64,000 nt of DNA, taken from the NCBI GenBank assembly GCA_027306925.1, contig DAHUXW010000089.1, positions 1,773-65,772 of the forward strand, read 5' to 3'. The notes below the pieces were generated by a model, which saw only the letters and a program-made list of their open reading frames with translations, was not told where the DNA came from and searched no databases. Source of the DNA: Acidimicrobiaceae bacterium (GTDB lineage Bacteria; Actinomycetota; Acidimicrobiia; Acidimicrobiales; Bog-793). Shown in pieces: positions 16,753-64,000 of the stretch. Each line of letters begins with the position of its first letter. Position 1 is the stretch's first letter. The translations under genes were made by a program, and so were the position numbers.

Positions 16753-16834
16753 GCACCGAGCGCGCCCGGCGCGGCGCCGGGCCCGGAGATCGCTGCCCGG
16801 AGCGCGCAGCGCCGGTCGGCGGGGAGGCGTCTCG

Positions 16835-42959: not shown

Positions 42960-42988
42960 CTCAAGCCGGGAGGGCGATCGGCCGATAG
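42960..42988 (+). promoter_or_regulatory. Sigma-28-like promoter candidate: CTCAAG-N15-GCCGATAG
   Basis: The -10 matches the classical FliA/SigD/WhiG GCCGATAA at 7 of 8 positions. It lies about 50 nt upstream of flbD-motA-motB-fliL. Confidence 0.6.
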
Positions 42989-44897: not shown

Positions 44898-44925
44898 TCG
44901 CACGTCGTTTGACCGAGGAGGAGTG

Positions 44926-45513: not shown

Positions 45514-45549
45514 GCGACGCGGCTGCGGCTCGGGCGACCCCGGTACTTG

Positions 45550-45578
45550 CTCAAGTCCAAGCCTCCGGATGCCGATGA
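45550..45578 (+). promoter_or_regulatory. Sigma-28-like promoter candidate: CTCAAG-N15-GCCGATGA
   Basis: Same architecture as the site at 42960. The -10 overlaps the first ATG of the flgN-like ORF (45569), so the real start may be the in-frame GTG at 45587 (leaderless or near-leaderless). Confidence 0.5.
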
Positions 45579-46090: not shown

Positions 46091-46094
46091 CGAC

Positions 46095-47516: not shown

Positions 47517-47529
47517 GAGGGAGCGGACC

Positions 47530-48480: not shown

Positions 48481-48508
48481 TCACCAGCGGAACCGAGAAG
48501 GCGCGAAC

Positions 48509-49702: not shown

Positions 49703-49987
49703 TCAGGAGGTGGGCGGTGCTTCGTCCGTTCCACCGCCTCCGGACCAGAACGCCTGGCGTGCAGCGATCGACTCGGTGACCCGGCGCTCGATCTCCTTCT
49801 GGCGAGCCTCGCGCGCGTAGGTGTCGACCGTGCGCTCGACGATCGCCCCGACCGCCCAGCACACGAGCAGCCCGAGGCTCAGGCGGACGAGCGCGGTCGC
49901 GACGGTGATGCCGCCGTTGAACGCCTCGGCGATCGAGGGCAGCGATACGACTATGGCCGCGACGACGACGATCTCGATGCGCTTCAC
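49703..49987 (-). CDS. Small membrane protein (94 aa, two TM segments) downstream of the flhF-like gene
   Basis: GTG at 49987 within ORF 49703..50275. Product VKRIEIVVVAAIVVSLPSIAEAF...LSLGLLVCWAVGAIV, then a charged C-terminus. Confidence 0.45.
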   Translation of the reverse strand: MKRIEIVVVAAIVVSLPSIAEAFNGGITVATALVRLSLGLLVCWAVGAIVERTVDTYAREARQKEIERRVTESIAARQAFWSGGGGTDEAPPTS

Positions 49988-50001
49988 CCCGGGCACGGCG
50001 C

Positions 50002-51279
50002 TCAGCGCTCCCCCGGCACGTCCGGTGCGTGCCGCGTCGCGAGCAGCTCGCTCCACCGTCGAGCGGTCGCGGGGGCATCCCCGATCCGTGCGACGGGAAC
50101 GCCCGCCCGCACGACCGCGGCAGGGGTGACAGTCGCATCGAGGTCGTCGACGACGAGCGCGTCGAGCCCGCCGGCGCTCGCGGCGAAGCACGCGACGTCC
50201 TCGGGCTTCGCGGCCGCGCTCACGACCGCCCACGCCGCCGTGGGGCGCAGGGCGTGCAGGACGGTCCGGCACCACCGGGCCGACGCGCGGTCCGTGCCGG
50301 TGCCCACCGCGACGACGGCGACCCCGTCACGTCGCCATCCGGGCGAGAGCGCGGCCGCTGTGCGTGCGTCGGTGGCGATCAGGTGGGTCGGGACCGCGAA
50401 GCCGGGGCGGTCCGCCGCTACGACCGCGATCTCGGCGTCGTCGAGACCGAGGTCGTCGATGATCGTGCTCGCGATCTCGAGCGCGCGCCCGAGCTCCCCG
50501 ACGACGGCGATCAGCGCGCCGGCCACGTCGGGCAGCGGGCTGGCGGCAGGCAGGAGCGCGCAGGCCGCGTCGATCGCGGCGAGCGGCGCGAGCCGGCCGG
50601 GGACCCGGTCGACGAGCTCGCGTGGGAACCCGAGCCCGTCGAGCGTCTCGCGCGCGGCGCGGGGCGCACCAACGGCGTTCGGCGGGCCGGGCGCGGAGAA
50701 GTCGCGCTCGCCGGCCGGCGCCTCGCCGGCCTCGCCCGCCGCGAGGCGTCGGAGCTCTCCGAGCGGGTCGTCGAAGCGCCCGACGGCGGACCGCTCGCGC
50801 CGTGCGGCCGCCTCGCGGGCCGCGCCCGGCGCCTCGTGACCAGCGGTCTCGCGCTCGACCACCTCGGTCGCGAGCGCGCCCGCGGTCGCGAGGCCGGCGA
50901 TCCCCGACGCGGCGAACGTGGCCGGATCGTCGCCGAGGGCGCTCGCGACACCGTCGAGCACCTCGTCGAACGAGCGCCGGGGCGGGCCGTCGACCTCGAA
51001 CACGTCCTCCGTCGACTCGACCAGGCGCTCGAGGGCGCTCGCGGTGGTCACCGGCGCCTGGGTCGCGGCGCGCGCCGTGGAGCGCGACGCGGGCGGTTCG
51101 GGCACGGCCGGTAGGACCTCGATGCGGTAGTGGAGCTTCTGGAAGAAGCCGAAGAGCCCGCCTTTGCGCACGCACGCGGGCTCGCTGATCCGCACGCCCG
51201 TGCCGTGCACGCTCCAGGCGTCGATCAGGAGCTTCTCGGGGTCGGGGCCCTCAAATACCAGCGGTAGCGTTGACACCAC
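50002..51279 (-). CDS. flhF: FlhF-like protein with degenerate GTPase motifs
   Basis: Sits immediately downstream of flhA with a 29-nt overlap. The N-terminal VRKGGLFGFFQK is FlhF-like. The NG-like region is collinear with FlhF, but the P-loop position reads IAVVGELGRALE, the DTAGR position reads AVGTGTD, and the TKLD position reads VDDLD. Confidence 0.6.
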   Translation of the reverse strand: MVSTLPLVFEGPDPEKLLIDAWSVHGTGVRISEPACVRKGGLFGFFQKLHYRIEVLPAVPEPPASRSTARAATQAPVTTASALERLVESTEDVFEVDGPPRRSFDEVLDGVASALGDDPATFAASGIAGLATAGALATEVVERETAGHEAPGAAREAAARRERSAVGRFDDPLGELRRLAAGEAGEAPAGERDFSAPGPPNAVGAPRAARETLDGLGFPRELVDRVPGRLAPLAAIDAACALLPAASPLPDVAGALIAVVGELGRALEIASTIIDDLGLDDAEIAVVAADRPGFAVPTHLIATDARTAAALSPGWRRDGVAVVAVGTGTDRASARWCRTVLHALRPTAAWAVVSAAAKPEDVACFAASAGGLDALVVDDLDATVTPAAVVRAGVPVARIGDAPATARRWSELLATRHAPDVPGER

Positions 51280-53323
51280 TCACCACTCCTATCCGTTCCA
51301 GCTGGACCTGCCGGCCGATCTCGCTCACCGACATGACCGCGAGCCGCGGGATCGCGGCCGCGAAGAGGTGCGCGAGCGCCGGGCGCAGCGCCGAGCCCAC
51401 GACGAGCACGGGCTCGCGTCCGGCGCGGCTGCCTGCGTCGTAGAGGGAGCGCACCTCGCCGACGAGCTGCTCGGTGACCTGGGGCTCGATGCCGAGCACG
51501 GTGCCCTGGTCGGTCACGCGGATGCTGTAGAGGAGGACCTGCTCGAACGCGGCGTCGACCGTCATCGCGGCGAGCTTGCCGTTGCGAGAGTGCGACGCGG
51601 TGATGAGCGGTCCGAGCGCGGTCCGCGCGGCCTCGACCAGCGACTCGTGGCTCTTGTTCGGCTGCCGGGAGCGGGCGGTCACGGCCTCGACGATCCGGAC
51701 GAAGTCGACGATCGGAACGCCCTCGTCCAGGAGCGACGCGAGGACGCGGTGGAGCTCGACGAGGGAGACCTGGGCGAGCTTCAGCTCCTCGACGGCCGCC
51801 GGGTCCGTGGCCTTCGCGGCGTCGAGGAGGATCTGGACCTGCTGGACCGAGAGGAGGTCCGCGGCGTGCCGGGTCACGACCTCCGCGAGGTGGGTGATGA
51901 TCGCGGACGACGGGTCGATCGGCGTGATGCCCGCGACCGCGATCGCCTGCTCGCGGGTCTCTGCGGGGATCCACTTCGCGGGGAGGCCGAACGCGGGCTC
52001 GGTCGTCGAGATCCCGGTAAGGAGGTCGATTCCCGGGCCGATCGCGAGCATCCGAGCCGGGTGGGCCTCGCCCCGAGCGACCTCGACGCCGTTCACACGG
52101 ATCGCGTAGCTGTTCGGCGGCAGGTTGATGTTGTCGTGCGTCCGCACTGTCGGGATCGCGAAGCCACGCTCGAGTGCGACCTTGCGTCTCAGGCCGCGCA
52201 CGCGCTCGAGGAGGTCGCCGCCGTGCGCGGCGTCCGCGAGCGGCGTGACGTTCGCCGCGAGCTCGAGCTCGAGGCGCTCCGCGCGCATCTCGCTCGCGAG
52301 CGCTTGCGGAGTGTCGAGCACGGGCGGGGCGACCGAGTCGAGCTCTGCGCGTGCCGCGTCGCTCGCGCGTGTCTCGGCCGCGCGGCGTGTGCGCGTGGAG
52401 AGCAGGACGAGCAGGCCACCGATGACGAAGAAGGGAAGGTGCGGGAGGCCGGGCACGAGTGCGAGGAGCATCATCGCGGCGCCCGCGATCTGCAGGGCGC
52501 GCGGCTGAGCGCGGAACTGGTCGACGATGTCGTTGCCGAAGTCCGAGTCGTCTCCGGTGCTCCCGCGGGTCACGATGAGCCCGGTTGAGATCGAGAGCAG
52601 GAGCGCCGGGATCTGCGACACGAGCCCGTCTCCGATCGAGAGGATCGAGTAGGTGTGGATCGCCTGGGACATCGACAGGTGGTGGCCGATCACGCCGATG
52701 AGGAAGCCCCCGAACAGATTGATCACCGTGATGATGAGCGCGGCGATCGCGTCGCCGCGGACGAACTTGCTCGCGCCGTCCATGTTCCCGTAGAACTCGG
52801 ACGTCTCGTCGATCTCCTTGCGCCGCCGTCGCGCCTCGGCCTCGTCGATCAGCCCGGAGTTCAGCTCGCCGTCGATCGCGAGCATCTTCGGTCCCATCGC
52901 GTCGAGCGAGAAGCGCGCGGAGACCTCCGACACGCGGCCCGCGCCGCTCGTCACGACGACGAACTGGATGATGATGAGGATCAGGAAGACGACGATCCCG
53001 ACGACGATCTGGCCGCCGATCACGAAGCTCCCGAAGCTCTGCACGACCGCCCCCGCGTAGCCGTGGAGCAGGACGAGCCGGGTGACGCTCACGTTGATCG
53101 CGAGCCGGAACATCGTCGCGATGAGGAGCAGCGACGGGAAGCCGGAGAAGTCGCGCGCCTTGTCGACGTGCATCGTCATGAGCAGCACGATGAGCGCGGC
53201 GGAGATGTTCACGGTGATGAGCAGGTCGAGCAGGAACGACGGCAGCGGCACCACGAGCATCACGATGATGACGATGACCGCCGCGGGGACCCCGAAGAGG
53301 CCGATCTTCTGACCGGTCTTCAC
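51251..53323 (-). CDS. flhA: Flagellar type III export apparatus protein FlhA
   Basis: 690 aa. Has FPSLLLIATMFRLAINVSVTRLVL, FVVVTSGAGRVSEVSARFSLDAMGPKMLAIDGELNSG and FYGNMDGASKFVRGDAIA. Confidence 0.95.
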   Translation of the reverse strand: MKTGQKIGLFGVPAAVIVIIVMLVVPLPSFLLDLLITVNISAALIVLLMTMHVDKARDFSGFPSLLLIATMFRLAINVSVTRLVLLHGYAGAVVQSFGSFVIGGQIVVGIVVFLILIIIQFVVVTSGAGRVSEVSARFSLDAMGPKMLAIDGELNSGLIDEAEARRRRKEIDETSEFYGNMDGASKFVRGDAIAALIITVINLFGGFLIGVIGHHLSMSQAIHTYSILSIGDGLVSQIPALLLSISTGLIVTRGSTGDDSDFGNDIVDQFRAQPRALQIAGAAMMLLALVPGLPHLPFFVIGGLLVLLSTRTRRAAETRASDAARAELDSVAPPVLDTPQALASEMRAERLELELAANVTPLADAAHGGDLLERVRGLRRKVALERGFAIPTVRTHDNINLPPNSYAIRVNGVEVARGEAHPARMLAIGPGIDLLTGISTTEPAFGLPAKWIPAETREQAIAVAGITPIDPSSAIITHLAEVVTRHAADLLSVQQVQILLDAAKATDPAAVEELKLAQVSLVELHRVLASLLDEGVPIVDFVRIVEAVTARSRQPNKSHESLVEAARTALGPLITASHSRNGKLAAMTVDAAFEQVLLYSIRVTDQGTVLGIEPQVTEQLVGEVRSLYDAGSRAGREPVLVVGSALRPALAHLFAAAIPRLAVMSVSEIGRQVQLERIGVVSGVNATAGI

Positions 53324-53389
53324 GGGCGACTCCCGAGGGTTCGCGCGAGCGAGCGCGCCACGGACCGACTCGTGCTGTGCACGGCGGGG

Positions 53390-53418
53390 CTAACGGCGGG
53401 TGGGACGGCCGAGTTGAG
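53390..53418 (-). promoter_or_regulatory. Sigma-28-like promoter candidate (minus strand): CTCAAC-N15-GCCGTTAG
   Basis: Intergenic, about 65 nt upstream of the flhA GTG, in the correct orientation. Same architecture as the plus-strand sites. Confidence 0.55.
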
Positions 53419-53449
53419 CGGCGCCGGGACCCGCCCGGCGGGTCCCGAG

Positions 53450-54844
53450 CTAGCGCCGGCAGAACGCCATGACACGGTCGGCCATGTAGTCGAGCTGCCG
53501 TTCCGACATCCCCGGGTAGAGGCCGATCCACAGCGAACGCTCCATGAGCCGGTCGGTCGCAGCGAGGTCGCCCACGACGCGGTAGCCCTCGCCTGACGCG
53601 CGCATCTCGTCGAAGCACGGGTGCCTGAGCAGGTTGCCGGCGAAGAGCGCACGCGTCTGCACCCGCTCGGACTCGAGCCAGCGCGCGAGGTCCGTGCGCT
53701 CGAAGGGTGCGTCGTCGCGAACCTGGAGGAGGAAGCCGAACCAGCTCGGGTCCGCGCGCTCGGTCGCCACCGGGAGGTCGAGCACGTCGGCGACCGGCTC
53801 GAGCGCGTCGCGCAGGTACGCGAAGTTCGCGCGGCGGGCCGCGCCGAACGCCTCGAGCTTGTCGAGCTGCGCGACCCCGATGGACGCCTGGAGGTCGGTC
53901 ATCTTCAGGTTGTAGCCGAAGTGCGAGTACGTGTACTTGTGGTCGTAGCCGCAGGGGAGCGTGCCGAACTGCTGGTCGAAGCGCTTGCCGCACGTGTTGT
54001 CCCGTCCGGAGCGGCAGTAGCAGTCGCGGCCCCAGTCGCGGAGCGAGGCGACGATGGCGTCGAGCTCGTCGTCCGAGGTGAACACGGCTCCGCCCTCGCC
54101 CGTCGTCATGTGGTGCGCGGGGTAGAAGCTGCTCGTCGCGACGTGGCCGAACGTGCCCGTCGGGCGGGTGGAGCGCTCGAGGATGGAGGTGTAGCGCGAG
54201 CCGAGCGCGTCGCAGTTGTCCTCGAGGAGCCAGAGGTCGTGGCGTCTACAGAAGCCGAGCACGGCGTCGACGTCGAACGGGTTGCCGAGCGTGTGCGCGA
54301 GCGAGACGGCTCGGGTCTTCGGGCTGAGTGCTGCCTCGAGCTGGCGGACGTCGACGTTTGCGGTCGTCGGGTCGACGTCGACGAACACCGGGGCCGCACC
54401 GTGCTGGACGATCGGCGCGACAGTGGTCGGGAAGCCCGCCGCCACCGTGATCACCTCGTCGCCGCGACGGATGCGGCGCTCGCCGAGCCGCGGCGAGGTG
54501 AGCGCGGCGAACGCCACGAGGTTCGCGGACGATCCCGAGTTCACGAGCCGGCAGGAGGACACGCCGAGGGTGGCGGCGAGGCGGGCCTCGAGAGCCGCCG
54601 CGTGGCGGCCCTCGGTGAGCCAGAACTCGAGCGACGCATCGACGAGGTTGCGCACCTCGGCGTCGTCGTAGACGCGCCCGGCGAAGCGCACCGGTGTGCG
54701 GCCCGGGACGAACGGCAGGCGCTCGGCGTCGGCAGCTGCGACGTAGCGGGTGACGAGCGCGAGGATCTGCTCGCGAAGCTCGCGCGCGGTGGGTCGCGCG
54801 CCGACTCCGTCGCCGGCCCCGATGAGGATCTCGGTGGTCGTCAC
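53450..54844 (-). CDS. ddhC: CDP-4-keto-6-deoxy-D-glucose-3-dehydrase (E1; RfbH/DdhC-like, DegT family)
   Basis: GTG at 54844 (GTGA overlap). FYPAHHMTTGEGG has His in place of the PLP lysine, which is the E1 hallmark. The Cys cluster DWGRDCYCRSGRDNTCGKRF is also present. Confidence 0.8.
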   Translation of the reverse strand: MTTTEILIGAGDGVGARPTARELREQILALVTRYVAAADAERLPFVPGRTPVRFAGRVYDDAEVRNLVDASLEFWLTEGRHAAALEARLAATLGVSSCRLVNSGSSANLVAFAALTSPRLGERRIRRGDEVITVAAGFPTTVAPIVQHGAAPVFVDVDPTTANVDVRQLEAALSPKTRAVSLAHTLGNPFDVDAVLGFCRRHDLWLLEDNCDALGSRYTSILERSTRPTGTFGHVATSSFYPAHHMTTGEGGAVFTSDDELDAIVASLRDWGRDCYCRSGRDNTCGKRFDQQFGTLPCGYDHKYTYSHFGYNLKMTDLQASIGVAQLDKLEAFGAARRANFAYLRDALEPVADVLDLPVATERADPSWFGFLLQVRDDAPFERTDLARWLESERVQTRALFAGNLLRHPCFDEMRASGEGYRVVGDLAATDRLMERSLWIGLYPGMSERQLDYMADRVMAFCRR

Positions 54845-55977
54845 GTGAGCGACCCGGCGCGCGCACGACCGGCGTGCGCGAGGACGCCGGGGTCGAGGTA
54901 GCAGTCGATCTGCCGCTCGAGCGCCCGCGCCGCGCAAAAGCCTGTCGCGCGCCGTGCCGCGTGGTACCATTCGACCGTCCAGCGCACTGCGTCGGTCAGG
55001 TCGAGACGCGGCGTCCAGCCGAGACGGGCTTGCGCCTTCGTGCTGTCGAGGGTGAGAACAGCCCGCTCCGGCGCGCGGTTCCCGACCGGCAGGCGGAGCT
55101 CGACGAGACCGCCCCCGCCGAGCTCGCTCCACGACGCCTCGACGAGTGCGACGAGCTGGCCGACCGTCGCGACGCTGCGCGGGTCCGGGCCGAAGTTCCA
55201 GGCCTCGGCGGCCGCGTGCGACTCATCGGCGAGATGGGCGCCGAGCAGGAGGTAGCCGGCGACGACGTCGAGCACGTGCTGCCAGGGGCGCACTGCGTCG
55301 GGTCGGCGGAGATCGAGCGGCATGCCGGTGTCGAGCGCGCGCACGCAGTCCGGGACGATCCGTCCGGGCGCGAAGTCGCCGCCGCCGACGATGTTGCCGG
55401 CCCGTGCGGTCGCGAGCGCGGGACCGCCGCCGAAGAACGACGCGCGGTACGCGTGGGCGACGAGCTCTGCCGCGCCCTTGCTCGCGCTGTAGGGGTCGTC
55501 GCCGCCGAGGTGGTCGGCCTCGAGGTGCGCGCCGTCGCGCGTCGCGTAGCACTTGTCGCTCGTCACGACGACGCAGCTCGCGACGGACCCGACGCGCCGG
55601 ACGGCGTCGAGGACGTGGACCGTGCCCATGACGTTCGTGTCGAAGGTGGCGACCGGGTCGGAGTAAGAGGGGAGCACCAGGGCCTGTGCGGCGAGGTGGA
55701 AGACGACCTCCGGCTGGACGCGGCGGATGACGTCTGCGACCCGGGCCGCGTCGCGCACGTCGGCGATCTCCTCGCGCGCGTACTCGCACAGCTCGCCCGG
55801 CGCGAGCGGACCGGGCCCCGCCGCGAGCGACAGCCCCGTGACGTCGGCTCCGCAGCGGGCGAGCCAGACGCAGAGCCACGTCCCCACGAAGCCGTTGTGG
55901 CCGGTCACGAGGACGCGCTTGTCGCGATAGGCGCCGGCGAACAGGTCCTCGTAGGCGCGTGCCGTCGATGCGGTCAC
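54841..55977 (-). CDS. ddhB: CDP-glucose 4,6-dehydratase (RfbG/DdhB-like)
   Basis: GTG at 55977 (GTGA overlap). Has VLVTGHNGFVGTWL, PYSASKGAAEL and RAGNIVGGGD. Confidence 0.8.
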   Translation of the reverse strand: MTASTARAYEDLFAGAYRDKRVLVTGHNGFVGTWLCVWLARCGADVTGLSLAAGPGPLAPGELCEYAREEIADVRDAARVADVIRRVQPEVVFHLAAQALVLPSYSDPVATFDTNVMGTVHVLDAVRRVGSVASCVVVTSDKCYATRDGAHLEADHLGGDDPYSASKGAAELVAHAYRASFFGGGPALATARAGNIVGGGDFAPGRIVPDCVRALDTGMPLDLRRPDAVRPWQHVLDVVAGYLLLGAHLADESHAAAEAWNFGPDPRSVATVGQLVALVEASWSELGGGGLVELRLPVGNRAPERAVLTLDSTKAQARLGWTPRLDLTDAVRWTVEWYHAARRATGFCAARALERQIDCYLDPGVLAHAGRARAGSLT

Positions 55978-56744
55978 TCCCAGACCTTCCACGGCGCGCG
56001 GCCCGAGGCCCACAGCTCCTCGAGCGCGGTGCGGTCTCGGAGCGTGTCCATGGCGTGCCAGAAGCCGTGGTGCTGGTACGCGGAGAGCTGGCCTTCGGCC
56101 GTGAGGCGCTCGAGCGGCTCGCGCTCCCAGGCGGTGAGCTCGTCGTCCACGTACCCGAGGACGTCGGGCGACAGGACGAAGAACCCGCCGTTGATCCACG
56201 CATCGCCGCCGGACGGCTTCTCCTTGAACCGAGCCACCATGTCCCCGGCGAGCTCGAGCGCGCCGAAGCGGCCGGGTGGCAGGATCGCCGTGACCGTCGC
56301 CAGGCGACCCTGCGCGAAGTGGAAATCGACGACCTTGCGCACGTCGACGTCCCCGACCGAGTCGCCGTAGGTCATCGCGAAGTGGTCGTCCTCGATGTAG
56401 CGCGCGACCTTTGCGAGGCGCCCGCCCGTCTGGGTCGCGTCGCCGGTGTCAACGAGCGTGACGGTCCACGGCTCGACGTCGTGGCGGTGGATCTCCACCG
56501 AGCCGGTCTTCAGGTCGAAGCTGACGTCGGAGTTGTGGAGCACGTAGTTCGAGAAGTACTCCTTGATCGCATAGCCCCGATAGCCGCAGCAGACGACGAA
56601 GTCGTTGAAGCCCGCCGCGGAGTAGATCTTCATGATGTGCCAGAGGATCGGGCGGCCCCCGATCTCGACCATCGGCTTCGGCTTCGTGTGGGTCTCCTCC
56701 GACAGCCGGGTCCCGAGACCGCCGGCGAGGATGACGACTTTCAT
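55974..56744 (-). CDS. ddhA: Glucose-1-phosphate cytidylyltransferase (RfbF/DdhA-like)
   Basis: ATG at 56744. Has MKVVILAGGLGTRLSEETHTKPKPMVEIGGRPILWHIMKIYS and WINGGFFVL. Confidence 0.85.
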   Translation of the reverse strand: MKVVILAGGLGTRLSEETHTKPKPMVEIGGRPILWHIMKIYSAAGFNDFVVCCGYRGYAIKEYFSNYVLHNSDVSFDLKTGSVEIHRHDVEPWTVTLVDTGDATQTGGRLAKVARYIEDDHFAMTYGDSVGDVDVRKVVDFHFAQGRLATVTAILPPGRFGALELAGDMVARFKEKPSGGDAWINGGFFVLSPDVLGYVDDELTAWEREPLERLTAEGQLSAYQHHGFWHAMDTLRDRTALEELWASGRAPWKVWE

Positions 56745-56820
56745 CGGCGTGGCGCTCCTCCCGTGCGGGCACGCGGCGCGTTCGCGTGCACCAGTCGCGA
56801 CCCGCGGGTCGTCGCTGGTC

Positions 56821-56849
56821 GTAACGGCGCGGGACGCGCGGACGTTGAG
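56821..56849 (-). promoter_or_regulatory. Sigma-28-like promoter candidate (minus strand): CTCAAC-N15-GCCGTTAC
   Basis: About 75 nt upstream of the ddhA ATG. Nearly identical to the flhA site (CTCAAC-N15-GCCGTTAG). Confidence 0.55.
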
Positions 56850-56923
56850 CGGTGGCCGCCGCGGCGGGCGACGTGCTCGGTAGGATGCCCGCCGACGCAA
56901 GCCGGACCCCGGAAGGCCCGCGA

Positions 56924-57988
56924 ATGGACCGCACGAGATCGATCATCGACTCCGACCTCGAGCGCATCGCGCGTGACCCGGTGCCGTGGGACCGCCTCGA
57001 AGGCGCGATCGTGCTCGTCACCGGTGCGACCGGTCTCGTCGGCTCGTACCTCGTCGAGGCGCTCGTCGCGCGCCGGGCGCCCGCGCACCGGCGCACGAAG
57101 GTGGTCGTGCTCGCGCGCTCGCCGTCGCGGGCGGCGGCGCGCTTCGCACACCTGGACGCGAGGCACGTCCGGGTCGTCGAGCACCGGCTCGACGCACCGC
57201 TCGCGCTCGAGGGGCGCGCGGACTACGTCGTGCACGCAGGCGCGCCCGCACAGCCGACGGCGTTCGCCGCGGACCCGGTCGGCACCTACGTCCCGAACGT
57301 CGTCGGGACCCACCACCTTCTCGAGTGGGCCGCCGACCGGGGCGTGGCGCGGTTCGCATTCGTGAGCAGCGGCGCGGCAAACGGCGCCGTCCCGCTCGAG
57401 CGCGGGCCGTACGACGAGGACGTCTACGGGCCGCTCGACCCCCTCGACCCGTACGCCTGCTACGCGGAGTCGAAGCGGATGGGGGAGGCGGCGTGCATGG
57501 CCTGGCACCGCCAGACCGGCCTCGAGACCGTCGTCGCGCGGCTGGGCCACACGTACGGCCCGGGCCTCGCCCGCTCCGACGCGCGCTCGTTCGCGGAGTT
57601 CGTGTACTGCGCAGTCGACGGCAGGGACATCGTGCTGCGGACCGCGGGGGAGGCGAGACGGCCGTTCTGCTACCTCACCGACGCCGTGACCGGGTTGCTC
57701 ACGACGCTCGTCGCCGGTGCCGCGGGCCGCGCGTACTTCGTCGTGAACGACGCCGCAGCGTGCTCGATCCTCGAGCTCGCGCAGCTCGTCGCCCGGCTGT
57801 CCCCAGCGCCCGGAATCTCCGTGCGCACGCTCGACGCGCCGCCGGGAGGTGCGCGGGGAGTCCACCCCGCCGGGGACCGCGAGCTCGCGATGCCCGTGGC
57901 GGCGCGTCTGCGCGCGCTCGGATGGGCTCCGCACGTCGGGCTCGCCGAAGGCTTCGCTCGCACCGTCGCCGCACACCTCGGCGGCTGA
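56924..57988 (+). CDS. NAD-dependent epimerase/dehydratase family (SDR) protein
   Basis: VLVTGATGLVGSYL Rossmann motif and YAESKRMGE (YxxxK). Start ATG 56924 is preceded by GGAAGG. Alternatives are 56885 and 56852. Confidence 0.75.
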   Translation: MDRTRSIIDSDLERIARDPVPWDRLEGAIVLVTGATGLVGSYLVEALVARRAPAHRRTKVVVLARSPSRAAARFAHLDARHVRVVEHRLDAPLALEGRADYVVHAGAPAQPTAFAADPVGTYVPNVVGTHHLLEWAADRGVARFAFVSSGAANGAVPLERGPYDEDVYGPLDPLDPYACYAESKRMGEAACMAWHRQTGLETVVARLGHTYGPGLARSDARSFAEFVYCAVDGRDIVLRTAGEARRPFCYLTDAVTGLLTTLVAGAAGRAYFVVNDAAACSILELAQLVARLSPAPGISVRTLDAPPGGARGVHPAGDRELAMPVAARLRALGWAPHVGLAEGFARTVAAHLGG

Positions 57989-58039
57989 CCCCAGACTCCG
58001 GCGGTTCCCGGGCGAGGCCGCGCGCATCGACGCCGCGTC

Positions 58040-58067
58040 CTCAACTCCCGTCGGGCGCGGACGTTAG
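58040..58067 (+). promoter_or_regulatory. Sigma-28-like promoter candidate: CTCAAC-N14-GACGTTAG
   Basis: Lies in the 227-nt gap between the SDR gene and the ThDP-enzyme gene. The spacer is one nt shorter than in the other sites. Confidence 0.4.
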
Positions 58068-58215
58068 GCGACCCTGTAGTCGAACGTGGCAGGAAGCTTT
58101 GTCCCGTGGGCGCCCAACGGATGGGGCGTCGGTGTTGCGCCATCGGATCTGGCGACATCGAGAGTGCGCAGCGTACGTGCGACCTGACTCGCCGCTGTGG
58201 GCAGAGGAGGATGCC

Positions 58216-60108
58216 ATGGGTTCCGATACGGCCGCCGTCGAGTCGGCCGCGCCCGTGCGGGTCGTCGACTGGATCGCCGCGGCGCTGCGAGCCCGCGGCA
58301 TCGACCAGGTGTTCACCGTGACGGGCGGCGGCGCGATGCACCTCGACGACGCGGTCGGCGCGGACGACGCGCTCGACGTCGTGTGCATGCTCCACGAGCA
58401 GGCCGTGGCAATCGCGGCCGAGGCGTACACGAAGGCGTCCGGGAAGCTCGCGCTCGCGCTCGTGACCGCCGGCCCCGGAGGGACGAACGCGATCACCGGT
58501 GTCGCGGGCGCGTGGCTCGACTCGACGCCGATGCTCGTGATCTCCGGCCAGGTGAAGCGGGCCGACCTCGTCGGCACGACCGGCGTGCGCCAGCGTGGCG
58601 TCCAGGAGCTCGACCTCGGCGCGATCGTCAAGTCGATCACGAAGTACACCGCGCTCGTATGCGATCCGCTCCAGATCCGCTACCACCTCGAGCGGGCGCT
58701 CCACCTCGCGACGACTGGACGCCCCGGTCCCGTCTGGCTCGAGGTCCCGCTGGACGTCCAGGCGGCGCTCGTGAGCCGCGCCGAGCTCGTCGGCTTCGAA
58801 CCGTCCGAGCTCGGCGGAGCGACGACGCTCGATCGTCGCGAGGTGCGGCGCGCGGCATCGCTCGTTCTCGACGCGCTCGCCGAGAGCGAGCGCCCGCTCC
58901 TGCTCGTGGGCGCCGGCGTACGCCTCGCGCACGCGGAGCGCGAGCTACTCCGGCTCGTCGACTCACTCGGGATCCCGGTGCTCACCACCTGGCCGGCGAT
59001 GGGACTCGTGGGGGACGAGCACCCGCTGCACCTCGGCCGGCCGGGCCCGCTCGCGGGCCGTGGCTCGAACTTCGTGCTGCAGACCGCGGATCTCGTGCTC
59101 TGCCTCGGGGCGCGACTCGATCTCGTGACGACCGGTTACGACCCGAAGGACTTCGCGCGCAACGCCCGGAAGTTCGTCGTCGACATCGACCCCGCCGAGC
59201 TCGCGAAGCTGGAGGGGGCGATCGACACCGCGATCTGTGCGGACGCCGGCGATTTCATCGCCGAGCTCGCCCGTGAGGCGCCGAGCCGCCCGGCGCGCGA
59301 TCGTCGGCGGTGGGCGGCACGCGGTCGCGAGCTGGTCGAGGCGTACCCGATCGTGTGCGAAGAGCACCGGGCCCGTGGCGGGCGCGTGTCGACGTACCAC
59401 TTCGCCGACGTGCTCTCCGATCTGCTCGGCGACGACGACGTGCTCGCACCGTGTAGCTCGGGGCTCGCGATCGAGATATTCCTGCTCGCCTTGCGCCTGA
59501 GGACCGGTCAACGGGCGGTCTTCACGACGGCGCTCGGCGCCATGGGCTACGGGCCGCCGGCGGCGATCGGCGCATGCATCGCGTCGGGACGGCGACGCAC
59601 GATCTGCGTGGACGGGGACGGAGGGTTCCAGCTGAACGTGCAGGAGCTCGAGACGATCCGCCGGCTCGCGCTTCCCGTGAAGATGTTCGTGCTCGAGAAC
59701 GGCGGCTACGCGTCGATCCGGGCGTCGCAGCAGCGGTGGTTCGGGCGCCTGGTCGGCGCGGACGCGTCGAGTGGCGTGACGCTCCCTCCCGTCGAGGGCC
59801 TCGCACACGCGTACGGCCTTCCGTTCGTCCGCATCGACGGCCACGAGCCCCTCGAGCCCCAGCTGCGCGCCGTCCTCGACGCTCCCGGCCCCGTCGTTTG
59901 CGAGGTTCCGTCGCCGCCGGACGAGCGGCGCGAACCGGCACAGGTGAGCGAGGCCCTCGCGGACGGCGGGATGCGCTCGCGTCCGATCGAGGACCTCGCG
60001 CCGCTCCTGGCGAGAGCGGAGCTCGCGGCGAACCTCGCGGCGGCGTGCGCCGCGACCTCTGACGGGCCGGCGGACGCCCGGCACGAGAACGACGAGGTGC
60101 ACCGATGA
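58216..60108 (+). CDS. Thiamine-diphosphate-dependent enzyme (acetolactate-synthase-like fold; YerE-like candidate)
   Basis: ATG at 58216 preceded by GAGGAGGA. Has VFTVTGGGAMHL, HEQAVAIAAEAYTK, TAGPGGTNAITGVAGAWLDSTPMLVISGQ and the ThDP motif GDGGFQLNVQELET...NGGY. Confidence 0.8.
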   Translation: MGSDTAAVESAAPVRVVDWIAAALRARGIDQVFTVTGGGAMHLDDAVGADDALDVVCMLHEQAVAIAAEAYTKASGKLALALVTAGPGGTNAITGVAGAWLDSTPMLVISGQVKRADLVGTTGVRQRGVQELDLGAIVKSITKYTALVCDPLQIRYHLERALHLATTGRPGPVWLEVPLDVQAALVSRAELVGFEPSELGGATTLDRREVRRAASLVLDALAESERPLLLVGAGVRLAHAERELLRLVDSLGIPVLTTWPAMGLVGDEHPLHLGRPGPLAGRGSNFVLQTADLVLCLGARLDLVTTGYDPKDFARNARKFVVDIDPAELAKLEGAIDTAICADAGDFIAELAREAPSRPARDRRRWAARGRELVEAYPIVCEEHRARGGRVSTYHFADVLSDLLGDDDVLAPCSSGLAIEIFLLALRLRTGQRAVFTTALGAMGYGPPAAIGACIASGRRRTICVDGDGGFQLNVQELETIRRLALPVKMFVLENGGYASIRASQQRWFGRLVGADASSGVTLPPVEGLAHAYGLPFVRIDGHEPLEPQLRAVLDAPGPVVCEVPSPPDERREPAQVSEALADGGMRSRPIEDLAPLLARAELAANLAAACAATSDGPADARHENDEVHR

Positions 60109-61340
60109 CCGTGACTCTCCCCGCGGGCGTCACCGCGGTCGACGGCGAGGCCTCGCTCGAGGCGATGCTCGCCGAGCCGGTCGAGGAAGCGCGCGTGCGC
60201 GAGCGCGGGACGTTCGAGATGGCGGCCCGGCACCGGACCGAGCGCATCGTGCTGCTCGGGGCCGGCGGCCTCGGCCGCCGGACTCTCGCGGGGCTCCGTG
60301 CGGCCGGGGTCGAGCCGCTCGCGTTCGCGGACAACCGTGCGAGCTCGCACGGGTCCACTGTCGACGGTGTCGAGGTGCTCGCCCCGGAGGACGCGTCGGC
60401 ACGCTTCGGTGCGGACGCCGTGTTCGTGGTGACGATCTGGGGCGCGGGTAGCACGCACCGCTTCGCCCACTCACGTGACCAGCTCGTCGCGCTCGGGTGC
60501 GACTGCGTCGTCCCCGCGGCGTGGCTCTTCTGGCGCTACGCCGAGCAGCTTCTCCCGTTCTACGCGCTCGACCTGCCCTCGCGTCTGCTCGAGCAGGCGA
60601 CCGAAGTGCGCACGTGCTACGAGTCGTTCGCGGACGAGCGGTCTCGGGCGGAGTACGTCACGCAGGTTCGCTGGCGCCTCACCGGTGACCCGGGGGGTCT
60701 CGCCCACCCGGTCGGGGAGGCGCAGTACCTCGTCACCGACGTCGCGGTCCCGGCAGACGGCGACGTGGTGCTCGACTGCGGCGCGTACGACGGCGACACG
60801 CTTCGCTCGTGGATGGCGGTGCGCGGCCCGTCGTTCCGGGAGTACGTGGCGATGGAGCCGGACCCGCAGAGCCGCGCCCGTCTCGCTGCGTGCGTCGCGG
60901 CGATGGACGACGGCCTACGGCAGCGCGTTCGGGTCCTCCCGTACTCGGTGGGCGGCCGGACGGGGACCGCGACGTTCAGCGCGTCGGGGTCGCTCTCGTC
61001 ATCGCTCGGCGAGGGAGGCGGGATCGAGGTCGAGTGCGTCCGGCTCGACGACCTGCGCGACGAGCTCGGTGGAGCGTCACCGACCTTCGTGAAGGTGGAC
61101 ATCGAAGGCGCCGAGCTCGACGCGCTCGCGGGCGCGGCGTCGCTCGTTCGCGAGTGCCGACCGATGATCGCGATCGCCGCCTACCACCGCCAGGACCACC
61201 TGTGGCGCGTTCCGCTCGCGGTGCGTGCGCTGTGGCCCGGGTACGCGCTCTTCCTCCGGCCGCACAACGAAGAGGGTTGGGACCTCATCCTCTACGCGGT
61301 TCCGCCGGATCGCGTGCCGGGGCGCCGAACCGCGAAGTGA
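60105..61340 (+). CDS. FkbM family methyltransferase with N-terminal Rossmann-like domain
   Basis: IVLLGAGGLGRR at the N-terminus. FkbM core VLDCGAYDGDT...FVKVDIEGAELDAL. Confidence 0.75.
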   Translation: MTVTLPAGVTAVDGEASLEAMLAEPVEEARVRERGTFEMAARHRTERIVLLGAGGLGRRTLAGLRAAGVEPLAFADNRASSHGSTVDGVEVLAPEDASARFGADAVFVVTIWGAGSTHRFAHSRDQLVALGCDCVVPAAWLFWRYAEQLLPFYALDLPSRLLEQATEVRTCYESFADERSRAEYVTQVRWRLTGDPGGLAHPVGEAQYLVTDVAVPADGDVVLDCGAYDGDTLRSWMAVRGPSFREYVAMEPDPQSRARLAACVAAMDDGLRQRVRVLPYSVGGRTGTATFSASGSLSSSLGEGGGIEVECVRLDDLRDELGGASPTFVKVDIEGAELDALAGAASLVRECRPMIAIAAYHRQDHLWRVPLAVRALWPGYALFLRPHNEEGWDLILYAVPPDRVPGRRTAK

Positions 61341-62380
61341 CCGTGCCCACCTTGCTCGCACACGAGACGGTCGCAGACTGGCTCGACTGGCGCGCCCGCG
61401 CCGCTGCGCGGGCGCACTCCCGGCGCTGGAGCCCGTCTCCGAGCGGTGCGTACTCGCTGTTCGGCGCGGGCGAGGAGCCGCTCGGCGAGGGTGCAGTCGT
61501 GGTCGCGGTCGACGACGTGTCGCCGACGGTGCGCGCCTCGCTCCTCGCCCCCGCCGACCTTCTCGTCGCGCGCGGCGTCCCGGTCGCGCTCCTCGCACCG
61601 GCTCACCTCGCAGATGCGCTCGCGGTGCGCGGCTTTCGCGCGGTCGCGGACTTCCGGGACCCGTCCAGGTCGCCGGTGGCGCCTGCGGCCGTGCTCGCAC
61701 TGTCGCACGCGGTGGGCGCCGGAGCGGCGGGGTGGGTGCTCGCGGGACGCGTGCACGCGCCGTTCCTCGTCGTCCAGCACGGTGTCGTCACCCCGTACGC
61801 GCCGCCTCTTCCCGCGGGTGCCGTCCTTCTCGCATGGTCGGCGCGAGACGCCGCGTTCTGGCTCGCGGGGCGCGTGGAGCTGGAGGTGGAGGTCGTCGGG
61901 AGCGAGCTCCTGTGGCAGGCGGCCCAGCTCCGTCGCGAGCGAGCCGACGCCGGGGAGCGGCTCTGCTTTCTCGGCCAGCTCCACGGAGCGGAGCTGGGGC
62001 GCGACGTGACCGTTCGCACGGTCGCGTCGATCGCGCGCACGCGTCCGGTCCTGTACCGCCCGCATCCCGCGGAGCGCGACCCGCTGAGCCTCGTGCGGCA
62101 CGAGCGGTGGCGCCGTGGGGGAGTCACGGTCGGCTCGCCGAACGTGCCGCTCACCGACGAGGAGGGTCCCGTCGTCGGGATCTTCTCGACGGGGATCCTC
62201 GAGGCGGCCGCGTGCGGCCTGGACGCGTACGCGACGTGCGCCCGCCCGCCCGGGTGGGTGGAGGAACTCTGGCTCCGATACTCGATGGCGCCGCTCGGGG
62301 CCCGCGAGGCAACCGTGGTGACCGTTCCTCCACGGCGACCCGCCGAGGCGATCGCGGACCTCGTGGAGGCGCGGAGGTGA
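61337..62380 (+). CDS. Hypothetical protein, possibly a GT-B-like transferase, within the sugar operon
   Basis: GTG at 61337 (GTGA overlap). The C-terminal RPHPAER...VVGIFSTGILEAAACGLDAY resembles the nucleotide-sugar-binding half of GT-B / capsule-type transferases. This is weak. Confidence 0.4.
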   Translation: MTVPTLLAHETVADWLDWRARAAARAHSRRWSPSPSGAYSLFGAGEEPLGEGAVVVAVDDVSPTVRASLLAPADLLVARGVPVALLAPAHLADALAVRGFRAVADFRDPSRSPVAPAAVLALSHAVGAGAAGWVLAGRVHAPFLVVQHGVVTPYAPPLPAGAVLLAWSARDAAFWLAGRVELEVEVVGSELLWQAAQLRRERADAGERLCFLGQLHGAELGRDVTVRTVASIARTRPVLYRPHPAERDPLSLVRHERWRRGGVTVGSPNVPLTDEEGPVVGIFSTGILEAAACGLDAYATCARPPGWVEELWLRYSMAPLGAREATVVTVPPRRPAEAIADLVEARR

Positions 62381-63081
62381 TCGTCGGGCGCGGCACACCG
62401 TTCCTCGCCGTTGTCCCGGCACGCGGGGGTTCGAAGCGGGTTCCGGGAAAGAACCGGCGTCTTCTCGCGGGACGTCCGCTCGTCGAGTGGTCGATCGAGC
62501 ACGTGGCGCGGTGCACGACGCCGATGCGCCTCGTGGTGAGCACCGACAGCAGCGAGATCGCCGCCCTCGCTGTCGCCGCAGGGGCGGAGGTTCCCTTCAT
62601 CCGCCCGGCGGAGCTCGCGACCGACGAGGCGCCGACCGAGCCGGTGCTCATCCACGCGCTCGACGCGACGCCCGGCGCGTCCGAGGCGGAGCACGTCGTG
62701 CTGCTGCCGCCGACGTCCCCGATCCGCCGCGACGGGTCGATCGACTCGGCGGTCGCCCGTTACCGAGGGCTCGGTGCGGACAGCCTCGTGAGCGTCACCG
62801 AGGCGAGCCCGTTGCAGTGGAGCGGTCCGCTCGACTCGCCGCGGCCGCTCTACGACACGAACGTGCGCCCGCGTCTGCAGAGCGTCGCACCGCAGATGCG
62901 CAGGTACCGGGAGAACGGGAACATCGTCATCACTTCCGCGGCCGGGCTTCGCGCATCGGGCAACCGCATCTGCGGCAAGACGGTGATGTTCGTCATGAGC
63001 CCCGAGGAAGGCATCGACCTCGACCGCGAGTACGACTTCTGGATGGCCGAGCAGTGGTTACGGAGCGCACATGCTTATTGA
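62377..63081 (+). CDS. Acylneuraminate cytidylyltransferase family (CMP-nonulosonic acid synthetase, NeuA/PseF-like)
   Basis: GTG at 62377 (GTGA overlap). Has AVVPARGGSKRVPGKNRRLLAGRPLVEWSIEH and LLPPTSPIRR. Confidence 0.8.
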   Translation: MIVGRGTPFLAVVPARGGSKRVPGKNRRLLAGRPLVEWSIEHVARCTTPMRLVVSTDSSEIAALAVAAGAEVPFIRPAELATDEAPTEPVLIHALDATPGASEAEHVVLLPPTSPIRRDGSIDSAVARYRGLGADSLVSVTEASPLQWSGPLDSPRPLYDTNVRPRLQSVAPQMRRYRENGNIVITSAAGLRASGNRICGKTVMFVMSPEEGIDLDREYDFWMAEQWLRSAHAY

Positions 63082-64000
63082 ACGAGACATCGCACGGTAC
63101 TGCGTCGCGAGCGACGAGACGGTCGAGGAGGCGCTCCGGCAGATCGCGCGCAACGGGAGGCGCACGGTGTTCTGCATCGAGCAGTCCGGAGCGCTCGCGG
63201 GCGTGATCACCGACGGCGACTTCCGCCGCTGGCTCCTCGCGAACCCCGGGGGACCGCTCTCGACGTGCGCGCTGTCGGTCGCGAACCGGTCGTACGTCTC
63301 GGCCCGGTCTGGAGCTTCGTACGACGAGATCGAGGCGCTGTTCAGCGAGGCGATCCAGCTCGTGCCGGTCGTCGACGACCGTGGGCGGCTGGTCGCGGTC
63401 GCGCGTCCCCGCACACGCACGCTGTGGATCTCCGGGCACGAGGTCGCGGCGGGCTCGCCGACGTTCGTCGTCGCGGAGATCGGAATCAACCACAACGGAA
63501 GCCTGGACGTCGCGAAGCGACTCGTCGACGTCGCCGCGCGAGCGGGCGTGAACTGTGCGAAGTTCCAGATGCGCGACCTCGTCTCGCTCTACCGGAACTC
63601 CGGCGCGGTCGGCGACTTCCGCGAGGACCTCGGCCCGCAGTACACGCTCGACCTGCTCGAGCGGTTCTCGCTCGGCGTCGACGAGATGGTGGAGCTCTTC
63701 GACTATTGCCGGAGCGTCGGCCTCGTCCCGCTGTGCACGCCGTGGGACCTCGAGAGCGCACGGGTGCTCGACGACTACGGGATCCCGGCGTACAAGGTCG
63801 CGTCCGCGGACCTCACGAACCACGCGCTCGTGTCGCTCCTCGCGCAGAGCGGACGGCCGGTGATCCTCTCGACGGGAATGTCGACCGAGCAGGAGATCGT
63901 CGAGACCGTCGCGCTGCTCCGGTCGGCCGGGACAGCCTACGCGCTGCTTCACTGCAACTCGACCTACCCGGCGCCGTTCAAGGATGTGAACCTGCGCTAC
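63071..64000 (+). CDS. CBS-domain / N-acetylneuraminate-synthase-family (NeuB/PseI/LegI-like) fusion; 3' end outside the window
   Basis: Own translation from ATG 63071 (open to the window end, so absent from the ORF track). Product starts MLIERDIARYCVASDETVEEALRQIARNGRRTVFCIEQSGALAGVITDGDFRRWL (CBS). It continues FVVAEIGINHNGSLDVAKRLVDVAARAGVNCAKFQMR...YKVASADLTNHALV...LHCNSTYPAP. Confidence 0.8.
   Translation, partial: MLIERDIARYCVASDETVEEALRQIARNGRRTVFCIEQSGALAGVITDGDFRRWLLANPGGPLSTCALSVANRSYVSARSGASYDEIEALFSEAIQLVPVVDDRGRLVAVARPRTRTLWISGHEVAAGSPTFVVAEIGINHNGSLDVAKRLVDVAARAGVNCAKFQMRDLVSLYRNSGAVGDFREDLGPQYTLDLLERFSLGVDEMVELFDYCRSVGLVPLCTPWDLESARVLDDYGIPAYKVASADLTNHALVSLLAQSGRPVILSTGMSTEQEIVETVALLRSAGTAYALLHCNSTYPAPFKDVNLRY

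Follow-up and report, generated by a model that had tools for sequence, protein, structure and literature searches.

Flagellin glycosylation islands are known from Pseudomonas, Campylobacter, Aeromonas, Clostridium, and Geobacillus (e.g., PMC5109656, PMC7874193, and PMC13317340), and a variable set of glycan genes at a fixed flagellar place has been described in Gram-negative and Firmicute genomes (e.g., PMC5109656). For the sugars, the described route to which we compare is the CDP-yersiniose pathway of Yersinia pseudotuberculosis, encoded by ddhA-D, yerE, and yerF (summarized in PMC4509608). Here we set beside these systems a 64,000-nucleotide stretch of contig DAHUXW010000089.1 from an Acidimicrobiaceae bacterium (the window), in which sugar-nucleotide genes lie next to the flagellar export-gate gene flhA. 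We interpret the region from position 53450 to the end of the window as a flagellum-associated glycosylation island at a hot spot immediately upstream of flhA, a reading to which we assign a probability of roughly 60%, and which suggests that the organism decorates its flagellum with an unusual sugar. A flagellar glycosylation island is a known category, and it is the phylum, the sugar chemistry, and a promoter subclass with T at position -11 that are unusual here; a literature search found no report of flagellin glycosylation in Actinomycetota.

The G+C content of the window is 72%, and homologues of its FlhA are those of uncultured Acidimicrobiales and Acidimicrobiia metagenome-assembled genomes. 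An earlier reading of this DNA (the original prediction) spoke of high-GC actinobacteria, which is right at the level of the phylum, with the FlhA homologues placing the lineage in Acidimicrobiia. Genes were called by third-position GC and annotated with Pfam and NCBIfam profiles, and the earlier gene calls proved essentially correct. The island genes and flhA are as follows, with ThDP denoting thiamine diphosphate.

51251-53323, minus strand: flhA, flagellar export-gate gene (Pfam FHIPEP, 763 bits)
53450-54844, minus strand: ddhC/rfbH, CDP-6-deoxy-D-xylo-4-hexulose 3-dehydrase, E1 (NCBIfam NF011936, 684.7 bits against a cut-off of 423)
54841-55977, minus strand: ddhB, CDP-glucose 4,6-dehydratase (TIGR02622, 373.7 bits against a cut-off of 278)
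55974-56744, minus strand: ddhA, glucose-1-phosphate cytidylyltransferase (TIGR02623, 430.3 bits against a cut-off of 300)
56924-57988, plus strand: SDR-family NAD-dependent sugar reductase/epimerase (Pfam Epimerase, 138.7 bits; GxxGxxG and YxxxK motifs)
58216-60108, plus strand: YerE-like/acetolactate synthase (ALS)-like ThDP-dependent carboligase (Pfam TPP_enzyme N, M, and C domains)
60105-61340, plus strand: FkbM-family methyltransferase (Pfam PF05050, TIGR01444)
61337-62380, plus strand: 347-aa conserved cassette protein (no Pfam or NCBIfam match)
62377-63081, plus strand: NeuA/PseF-like CMP-sugar cytidylyltransferase (TIGR03584 PseF-like, under the cut-off; reading frame checked)
63167-64000, plus strand: CBS-NeuB-type ulosonic-acid synthase, running past the window end

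These genes are embedded in a flagellar cluster that also contains flbD, motAB, fliL, flgN, flgKL, fliW, and csrA; ddhCBA abuts flhA, which lies directly downstream of ddhC, in agreement with the earlier placement of the glycan genes. The two sugar operons described before are both present, but the SDR gene between them had been left unmentioned. As in the described flagellin glycosylation islands, the sugar-nucleotide genes lie in a flagellar locus, their content varies between close relatives, and NeuB/NeuA-type genes are among them. Unlike those islands, the one in the window is upstream of flhA rather than beside a flagellin gene, has no Maf-type transferase, belongs to Actinomycetota (Acidimicrobiia), and has a predicted role in glycosylation. 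A promoter subclass shared with flhA and a variable gene slot upstream of flhA give good support for a link between the sugar genes and the flagellar system, and the earlier claim that the sugars serve the flagellum rather than a general envelope is to this extent partly supported; that flagellin is the acceptor is a part of that claim that we only infer.

The consensus for sigma-28 (FliA/SigD/WhiG) promoters is TAAA-N15-GCCGATAA. Six sites in the window resemble it and fall into two subclasses, according to whether A or T occupies position 5 of the -10 box.

53390-53418, minus strand: flhA site, T subclass, CTCAAC-N15-GCCGTTAG, 67 nt before the flhA start
56821-56849, minus strand: ddhA site, T subclass, CTCAAC-N15-GCCGTTAC, 76 nt from the ddhA ATG
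58040-58067, plus strand: ThDP operon site, T subclass, CTCAAC-N14-GACGTTAG, 149 nt before the ATG at 58216
42960-42988, plus strand: flbD-motAB-fliL site, A subclass, CTCAAG-N15-GCCGATAG
45550-45578, plus strand: flgN-flgK-flgL-fliW site, A subclass, CTCAAG-N15-GCCGATGA
41245-41273, plus strand: site of the response regulator/GGDEF pair, A subclass, CTCAAC-N15-GTCGATAG, position weight matrix (PWM) score 19.3; relative L099 has one too

Both sugar operons carry the motif, as originally predicted. The ddhA site is a full match to the flhA site, their 8-base -10 boxes (GCCGTTAC and GCCGTTAG) differing by the single base that had been reported, and the ThDP site is a weaker match, with a spacer one base shorter than in the strong sites and one -10 mismatch. 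All have a T(C/A)AA-like -35 box (CTCAAC at ddhA, ThDP, and flhA; CTCAAG at flbD and flgN), and the boxes are 15 nt apart at ddhA and flhA, and 14 nt apart at the ThDP site and at a further site in a close relative described below. The sugar operons and flhA share the form CTCAAC-N14/15-G(C/A)CGTTAG, with T where sigma-28 promoters have the flipped -11 A, and the flbD, flgN, and response regulator/GGDEF sites carry the canonical GCCGAT(A/G). One motif had been taken to be common to flhA, motAB, and flgKL; the sugar operons do group with flhA, but motAB and flgKL carry the distinct GCCGAT form, so that what had been pooled as a single flagellar-type motif is in fact two related motifs, GCCGTTA and GCCGATA. 

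Chance expectations refer to both strands of a 64-kb sequence. Four places in the window fit the pattern TCAA-N16-GCCGWT (flbD/motA, flgN, flhA, and ddhA), compared with 0.03 expected, and all four are intergenic and oriented toward their gene. A PWM trained solely on these four strong sites gives six matches at scores of at least 17.5, compared with 0.06 expected; two of the six lie outside the training set, the response regulator/GGDEF site (19.3) and the ThDP site (17.8), and the next-best non-site scores 13.5. A relaxed pattern that covers the ThDP site also finds four matches, with 0.01 expected.

Scanning metagenomes with the ThDP protein recovered two loci, L087 and L088, that are syntenic with the window at 93 to 98% amino-acid identity. 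At their ThDP site both boxes (-35 and -10) are unaltered, compared with changes at 5 of the 14 spacer bases and about 40% of the upstream bases; the ddhA site is kept with one spacer change, and the flhA site is kept as well. The ThDP leader (58068-58215, about 150 nt) is almost invariant between the window and L087/L088, compared with the change of about 40% upstream of the promoter. A riboswitch or other leader RNA in it was rejected as a candidate, with no Rfam match and a fold no better than that of shuffled sequences (z = 0.07). In L087 the island continues with a NeuB-SAF-AP_endonuc_2 protein (716 aa), a short-chain dehydrogenase, a GFO/IDH oxidoreductase, and a 414-aa methyltransferase, and judged from this gene order the window island would extend some 5 to 6 kb past the window end. 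After the methyltransferase gene there is a distal site, TCAAG-N14-GCCGTTAGCC, ahead of a further predicted gene, whose N-terminal peptide has no homologue that we could find and whose reading frame may be wrong. DdhA was also tried as a probe for relatives, and a scan of a genome collection gave only distant matches (at most 67% identity) from scattered phyla; it is unsuited to this purpose because it is too widely exchanged. An exact search for the FlhA of the window gave no match, and the ThDP protein of the window itself led to nothing longer than a 4.3-kb contig.

Within the window, the 31-bp ddhA element (56820-56850) sits at the exact center of the 179-bp gap between ddhA and the SDR gene. 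Read on the plus strand it is CGTAAC-N15-GACGTTGAG, a T-type site 74 nt from the SDR ATG, and the element may act as a promoter in both directions; the flhA sites lack this symmetry. A stable GC hairpin (53418-53460, minus strand; -32.3 kcal/mol, z = -2.86) begins directly after the ddhC stop and ends at the start of the flhA -35 box. It likely separates the ddh operon from the flhA promoter as an insulator or terminator, as judged from the predicted fold, and a simple terminator scan did not call it because it has no T-tract. With this hairpin and their separate sites, ddhABC and flhA in the window look like separate units with matching promoters. Scans of 53200-58400 detected no sigma-70-type promoter and called no intrinsic terminator.

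The gene content upstream of flhA was compared in five FlhA orthologue neighborhoods, L098 to L102, with 92, 88, 82, 75, and 72% FlhA identity, respectively. They share a backbone of (response regulator-GGDEF)-flbD-motAB-fliL-flgN-flgKL-fliW facing csrA, two open reading frames (ORFs) without a family match, and flhA. The slot upstream of flhA holds the following genes, TPR denoting tetratricopeptide repeats and GT a glycosyltransferase family.

L098: ddhCBA, three epimerases, NeuB-SAF, GT2, and another ThDP enzyme (44% identical to that of the window)
L099: two giant GT2-TPR-GT4 proteins, GT2, WbqC, two DegT proteins, and a methyltransferase
L100: giant TPR glycosyltransferases, RmlC- and RmlD-like genes, and ddhA-ddhB-ddhC
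L101: GT4, methyltransferase, ThDP enzyme, GT2, NeuB-SAF, and epimerases
L102: two large (putative) glycosyltransferases

The slot gene sets of all five differ from the window and from each other, those of L098 and L101 being alike. In L100 the last gene of ddhABC overlaps the flhA start, giving a single ddhABC-flhA operon. Both L099 and L100 carry giant GT2-TPR-GT4 proteins, a further likeness to described flagellin glycosylation islands, in which TPR-containing glycosyltransferases are also found. By analogy with those islands, we regard a variable glycan set at a fixed flagellar position as the signature of a flagellar glycosylation island. In a separate lineage of 72% G+C (L084), a related cassette lies directly after flgK-flgL-fliW; GCCGATG boxes before its ThDP and ddhB genes were not counted, the -35 boxes being poor. 

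Several side observations concern sugar genes in such positions. In Pseudomonas subflava (L071, 4930-19475), flgK-flgL is followed by ugd, ddhA, ddhB, a C-methyltransferase, DegT, WbqC, an epimerase, an ATP-grasp protein, and a CmcI-type methyltransferase; these CDP-sugar genes occupy the classical site of the flagellin glycosylation island in Pseudomonas, which is the position after flgK-flgL. Short tandem GC-rich GCGCCCGCTCGTC(C/G) units occupy intergenic DNA of L098 (about 2750-2900) between a weak ddhA site and ddhA, and repeated GC-rich GGGCGACTGGCTCACC units are present in intergenic sugar-island DNA of L084 (18194-18338).

The split into two promoter subclasses recurs in relatives with 75 to 92% FlhA identity. 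The window, L098 to L102, and the L087 distal site were scanned with a pattern permitting A or T at -10 position 5. The flbD site has A in all six lineages (the window and L098 to L102), the flgN site in five of six, with L101 reading GCCGTTGG, and the response-regulator site in both lineages where it is visible. At flhA, T is present in the window, L098, L099, and L101 (GCCGTTAG or GCCGTTAA), as it is at the near-identical L088 site, which was excluded from the count; L102 has the canonical GCCGATAA form at the same distance from the gene (TTAAG-N15-GCCGATAAC). The sugar operon sites are all T (6/6), comprising the window ddhA and ThDP sites, the L087 distal site, and three others.

L099, DegT-DegT-WbqC-GT2 operon: CTTAAC-N15-GACGTTAGGA, T
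L099, methyltransferase gene: CTAAAG-N15-GCCGTAAGA, T
L100, ddhABC-flhA operon: CTAAAG-N15-GCCGTTAGCC, T

Position 5 is therefore 13 A and 1 T at motility operons and 1 A and 10 T at flhA and sugar operons (Fisher p = 3.5e-5, a value that is overstated because orthologous sites share ancestry). The L099 sugar operons with T-type sites are not homologous to those of the window, and the -10 box of the window ThDP site (GACGTTAGG) also precedes the L099 DegT operon. In an alignment of seven flhA-type sequences the only invariant columns are CT.AA and GCCG.TA and the spacer is fully diverged, with the L088, L098, L099, and L101 flhA sites keeping CTCAA(C/G) and GCCGTTA.

We note several observations that weigh against a flagellar glycosylation island. 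No fliC is present in the window, in L087/L088, or in L098 to L102, and the sole Flagellin_N protein of the window is FlgL (TIGR02550, above the cut-off). No glycosyltransferase lies inside the window's part of the island, and ddhD, coding for the E3 iron-sulfur flavoprotein reductase that partners RfbH, is not among the island genes of the window or of L087, although it could lie in another part of the genome. No clear promoter site precedes the sugar operons of L098 and L101, and the split between A and T is not absolute, L101 flgN having T and L102 flhA having A. The sugar operon and flhA sites (GCCGTTA or GACGTTA) lack the -11 A, which is present only at the flbD, flgN, and response regulator/GGDEF sites, and a published search of Actinomycetota needed GCCGA and would miss T-type sites (PMC13595943). 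Finally, the cassette ThDP-FkbM-347-aa protein-NeuA-NeuB(SAF, AP_endonuc_2), often accompanied by ddhABC, is found again on at least seven other contigs, including L082/L083, L085, L086, L089, L091, and L096 (58 to 69% G+C), where it lies beside GT2, a small membrane protein, and GT87. These contigs show no flagellar genes, and no promoter motif where they were scanned. 

The combination of GT2, membrane protein, and GT87 is typical of lipid-carrier-based (GT-C type) envelope glycosylation. The cassette is evidently a mobile sugar module that is not intrinsically flagellar, since it also occurs without flagellar genes, and the island in the window might produce a surface glycan in general, be it of the cell envelope, the S-layer, or another kind, with a sigma factor of broad regulon accounting for its promoters and its place at flhA. 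Such a glycan would also fit the lack of fliC and of a Maf/FlmG-type transferase in the window, and WhiG-family regulons are predicted to span many non-motility functions in a 2026 survey (PMC13595943). However, the GT2, membrane-protein, and GT87 genes of the cassettes elsewhere are absent from the island of the window lineage, which is always found within the flagellar locus and whose gene set differs in each of the five FlhA relatives examined; the ddh genes of L100 are joined into the flhA operon, and the non-flagellar cassettes are without the motif. We therefore consider an envelope glycan unlikely, though it deserves serious attention. The flhA-type promoters in the window, the lack of envelope transferases, and the position of the L084 cassette rather favor the view that some lineages have recruited the module to the flagellum, as far as gene order and sequence can indicate.

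A second alternative concerns who reads the GCCGTTAG-type element. Its -11 base is T and not the A of canonical sigma-28, the ddhA element reads as a site on both strands like a palindromic operator, and the letters and spacing of TCAAC...CGTT resemble what we take to be those of extracytoplasmic function (ECF) promoters. The element could thus be an ECF-type promoter (AAC-N17-CGTT) or the site of a dimeric regulator rather than a target of FliA, and flhA and the sugar genes would still be co-regulated. Yet the element has the same -35 box, spacer length, and GCCG part as the canonical sites in the same locus, the flhA sites are asymmetric, and the window has two FliA paralogues but no ECF sigma gene. 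The orthologous flhA position of L102 is a textbook sigma-28 site, and it is because of this that the T form looks like a derivative of a sigma-28 promoter and that the ECF-type reading is down-weighted, leaving a non-FliA reader quite improbable. Dependence of the T-type sites on FliA is plausible from the sequences. That the sugar operon matches are chance similarities in GC-rich intergenic DNA is effectively refuted by the motif statistics and box conservation, for even though the ThDP site fits only with a shortened spacer and one mismatch, and the relaxed pattern was devised once that site had been seen, only 0.01 to 0.06 matches are expected by chance per 64 kb on both strands, the strong matches are all intergenic and correctly oriented, and the boxes are conserved across mutated spacers.

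The remainder of the locus contains two FliA/WhiG-family sigma genes, of which copy 1 is the more divergent, together with the che operon, motility genes, and two glycosyltransferase genes.

30206-31048, minus strand: FliA/WhiG sigma factor copy 1 (TIGR02479, 188.1 bits against a cut-off of 189.6)
31726-33528, plus strand: GT-B (GT4) glycosyltransferase (Pfam Glycos_transf_1)
33589-34302, minus strand: GT-A-fold glycosyltransferase, 237 aa (AlphaFold and Foldseek)
Up to 39954, minus strand: cheX-Y-R-B-W-A
39992-40837, minus strand: FliA/WhiG sigma factor copy 2, heading the che operon (TIGR02479, 213.5 bits against a cut-off of 189.6)
From 41397, plus strand: response regulator and GGDEF protein
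43127-49012, plus strand: flbD-motA-motB-fliL and flgN-flgK-flgL-fliW
From 49009, minus strand: long csrA, then two ORFs without a family match

In the Pseudomonas sigma-28 open complex, the -11 A (GCCGATAA position 5) is flipped into a pocket of sigma-2 (PMC12784957), and for actinobacterial WhiG1/WhiG2 the 2026 survey gives a consensus with -35 xT(C/A)Ax and -10 GCCGA (PMC13595943). According to the same survey, the most common predicted flagellar targets of WhiG1 are flagellin and flbD, the most widespread predicted WhiG targets are cyclic di-GMP (c-di-GMP) enzymes, and the predicted WhiG-family regulons of Actinomycetota include many non-motility functions (PMC13595943). The A-type sites of the window, upstream of flbD, flgN, and the GGDEF gene, match this picture exactly and lie where WhiG1 targets are predicted (PMC13595943). 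The window sites also share with sigma-28 promoters the T(C/A)AA -35 box, the 15 +/- 1 spacer, and a -10 box beginning with GCCG, and those of flhA and the sugar operons differ from them in the -11 T (GCCGTTAG or GACGTTAG).

Aligned to WhiG/FliA structures, copy 1 has a one-residue insertion (DRWADDSPASRF) in the loop that forms the pocket for the -11 base, and it has Ile at the position of Pseudomonas aeruginosa R104. The loop has the usual length in copy 2 and in the single sigma factor seen in L102, all of whose sites are A-type. The insertion is suggestive as a basis for reading -11 T, and the paralogues might split the regulon by the -11 base, one reading GCCGAT and the other GCCGTT (flhA and the glycan island); on sequence grounds this is a tentative proposal that we think is probably not correct as it stands, though worth stating. 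In such a split the GCCGAT reader (flbD-motAB, flgN-flgKL, and c-di-GMP genes) would perhaps be copy 2, and the GCCGTT reader copy 1. Actinoplanes missouriensis offers a likeness, with several FliA/WhiG paralogues in one actinobacterium and partly distinct regulons (cited in PMC13595943); the passages of that survey that were consulted mention neither a -10 difference between the targets of the paralogues nor sugar-biosynthesis targets. Low-scoring sites also lie upstream of both sigma genes, CTAAAG-N15-GCCGACAA before copy 1 (31593-31621, minus strand) and ATCAAG-N15-GCCGTAAC before copy 2 (41028-41056, minus strand). Their scores are in the noise range, and they could represent auto- or cross-regulation of the sigma genes.

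DdhA, DdhB, and DdhC (RfbH) all exceed the NCBIfam equivalog cut-offs, and acting in this order they are predicted to give CDP-4-keto-3,6-dideoxyglucose. The ThDP enzyme falls below every NCBIfam ALS cut-off, and its best match in the PDB is JanthE (8RPH, E value of 1e-116; the next match is 4e-70), a YerE-like, ketone-accepting enzyme that adds an acyl anion to ketones and whose own natural substrate is not known (PMC12188165). By this similarity, the ThDP enzyme would add a C-branch to a keto-sugar. The SDR protein shares 51% identity with the SDR portion of an SDR-FkbM fusion from the flagellum-linked L084 cluster but only about 31% with the epimerases found in non-flagellar cassettes, and it is a candidate YerF-like ketoreductase. 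From ddhABC, the YerE-like enzyme, and the SDR together, a yersiniose-like branched sugar is predicted. The window shares with the CDP-yersiniose pathway DdhA, DdhB, and DdhC, a YerE-like carboligase, and an SDR possibly in the role of YerF. It differs in that its island is without ddhD and has an extra FkbM and other methyltransferases, and in that the ThDP gene is co-operonic with NeuA/NeuB-type genes and not with ddh as in the Yersinia pathway; moreover, the yersiniose of Yersinia goes into O-antigen and not into a flagellar glycan.

For the second branch, a CMP-ulosonic acid is the predicted product of the NeuB-type synthase together with the NeuA-type cytidylyltransferase. Both proteins fall under the NeuB, PseI, and PseF equivalog cut-offs, and the full-length L087 orthologues match Pfam NeuB with 273 bits and CTP_transf_3 with 61.7 bits. 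No PseB/C/H/G or LegB/C/H/G tailoring enzymes are encoded in the island, where the only DegT protein is RfbH, and with these tailoring genes absent the ulosonic branch does not correspond to the standard route to pseudaminic or legionaminic acid. The 347-aa protein is 45 to 51% identical to the cassette protein at the same position in L082, L089, L091, and L096.

The original prediction placed two further glycosyltransferases near fliA copy 1, and both are there, the GT-B by its Pfam match and the 237-aa GT-A by AlphaFold and Foldseek. The C-terminal helical tail of the GT-B has matches to TPR_14/16/19 that are below threshold (E values of 0.002 to 0.013), and it is a candidate protein glycosyltransferase. 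The GT-A protein has no Pfam match; its AlphaFold model has a predicted local distance difference test score of 93.1, and the top Foldseek matches in the PDB are all GT2/GT-A with a probability of 1.00. The profile of its family weakly matches a GT2 glucosyltransferase chain (9jma) and dolichol-phosphate mannose synthase, and 6 of 55 family members weakly match Glycos_transf_2. A weak T-like site precedes the GT-A gene (TTCATC-N14-GCCGTTAG, 34394-34421, minus strand; PWM score of 11.6), and the GT-B gene has a degenerate site (TTCAAC-N15-GCCGTAGT) 265 nt ahead of it; both scores are in the noise range. No Maf-type protein was found, and no Maf/FlmG-type transferase was seen in the window. The GT-A family itself comprises about 2,500 representative proteins at E values of at most 0.001 and has no Pfam or NCBIfam model.

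Other features of the locus are recorded here as observations in their own right. CsrA (49009-49590, minus strand) is 193 aa long, and its CsrA domain occupies only residues 116 to 177, after an N-terminal extension of about 115 aa; the long form (183 to 196 aa) is kept in all five FlhA relatives, facing fliW. Two conserved ORFs without a family match always follow flhA (49703-51210, minus strand, in the window, and L098 to L102), one of 400 to 620 aa and the other of about 100 aa with two hydrophobic segments in the window, and they occupy the place expected for flhF/flhG in other bacteria. Outside the motility locus, 10232-19321 contains a glycogen-type GT4 (TIGR02149 glgA_Coryne), a GlgC-like nucleotidyltransferase, and an 828-aa fusion of sugar-1-phosphate nucleotidyltransferase and phosphomannomutase, all without the promoter motif.

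Taken as a flagellar glycosylation island, the locus would work as follows. Each unit (ddhABC; ThDP-FkbM-347-aa protein-NeuA-NeuB; and one more beyond the window) would be preceded by a variant sigma-28-like promoter, CT(C/A)AA(C/G)-N14/15-G(C/A)CGTTAG, as flhA is, and the ddhA element, read in the other direction, would probably serve the SDR gene. The island would be under the control of one or both FliA/WhiG-family sigma factors of the locus and, with flagellar-type promoters shared in this way, the sugar precursors would be made in step with flagellar assembly. The CDP-3,6-dideoxyhexose would be C-branched by the YerE-like enzyme and reduced by the SDR to a yersiniose-like sugar, possibly methylated, and the NeuB-type synthase and NeuA-type cytidylyltransferase would provide a CMP-ulosonic acid. 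The acceptor may then be flagellin or another flagellar surface protein, with the sugars attached by the two glycosyltransferases (GT-B and GT-A) encoded near fliA copy 1 or by transferases encoded past the window end.

If this reading is correct, flagellar glycosylation islands extend to Actinomycetota, specifically to the Acidimicrobiia, a widespread and mostly uncultured class of soil and water, and gain an unusual predicted sugar, a C-branched 3,6-dideoxyhexose. The locus would also be a concrete example in which sigma-28-type promoters have T at -11, a position where A is otherwise essential, and, should the paralogues indeed split the regulon, a two-tier cascade of sigma-28 paralogues with a sigma-28 relative that melts DNA at -11 T. 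The slot upstream of flhA would then be a simple annotation marker for surface-glycan diversity in this clade.

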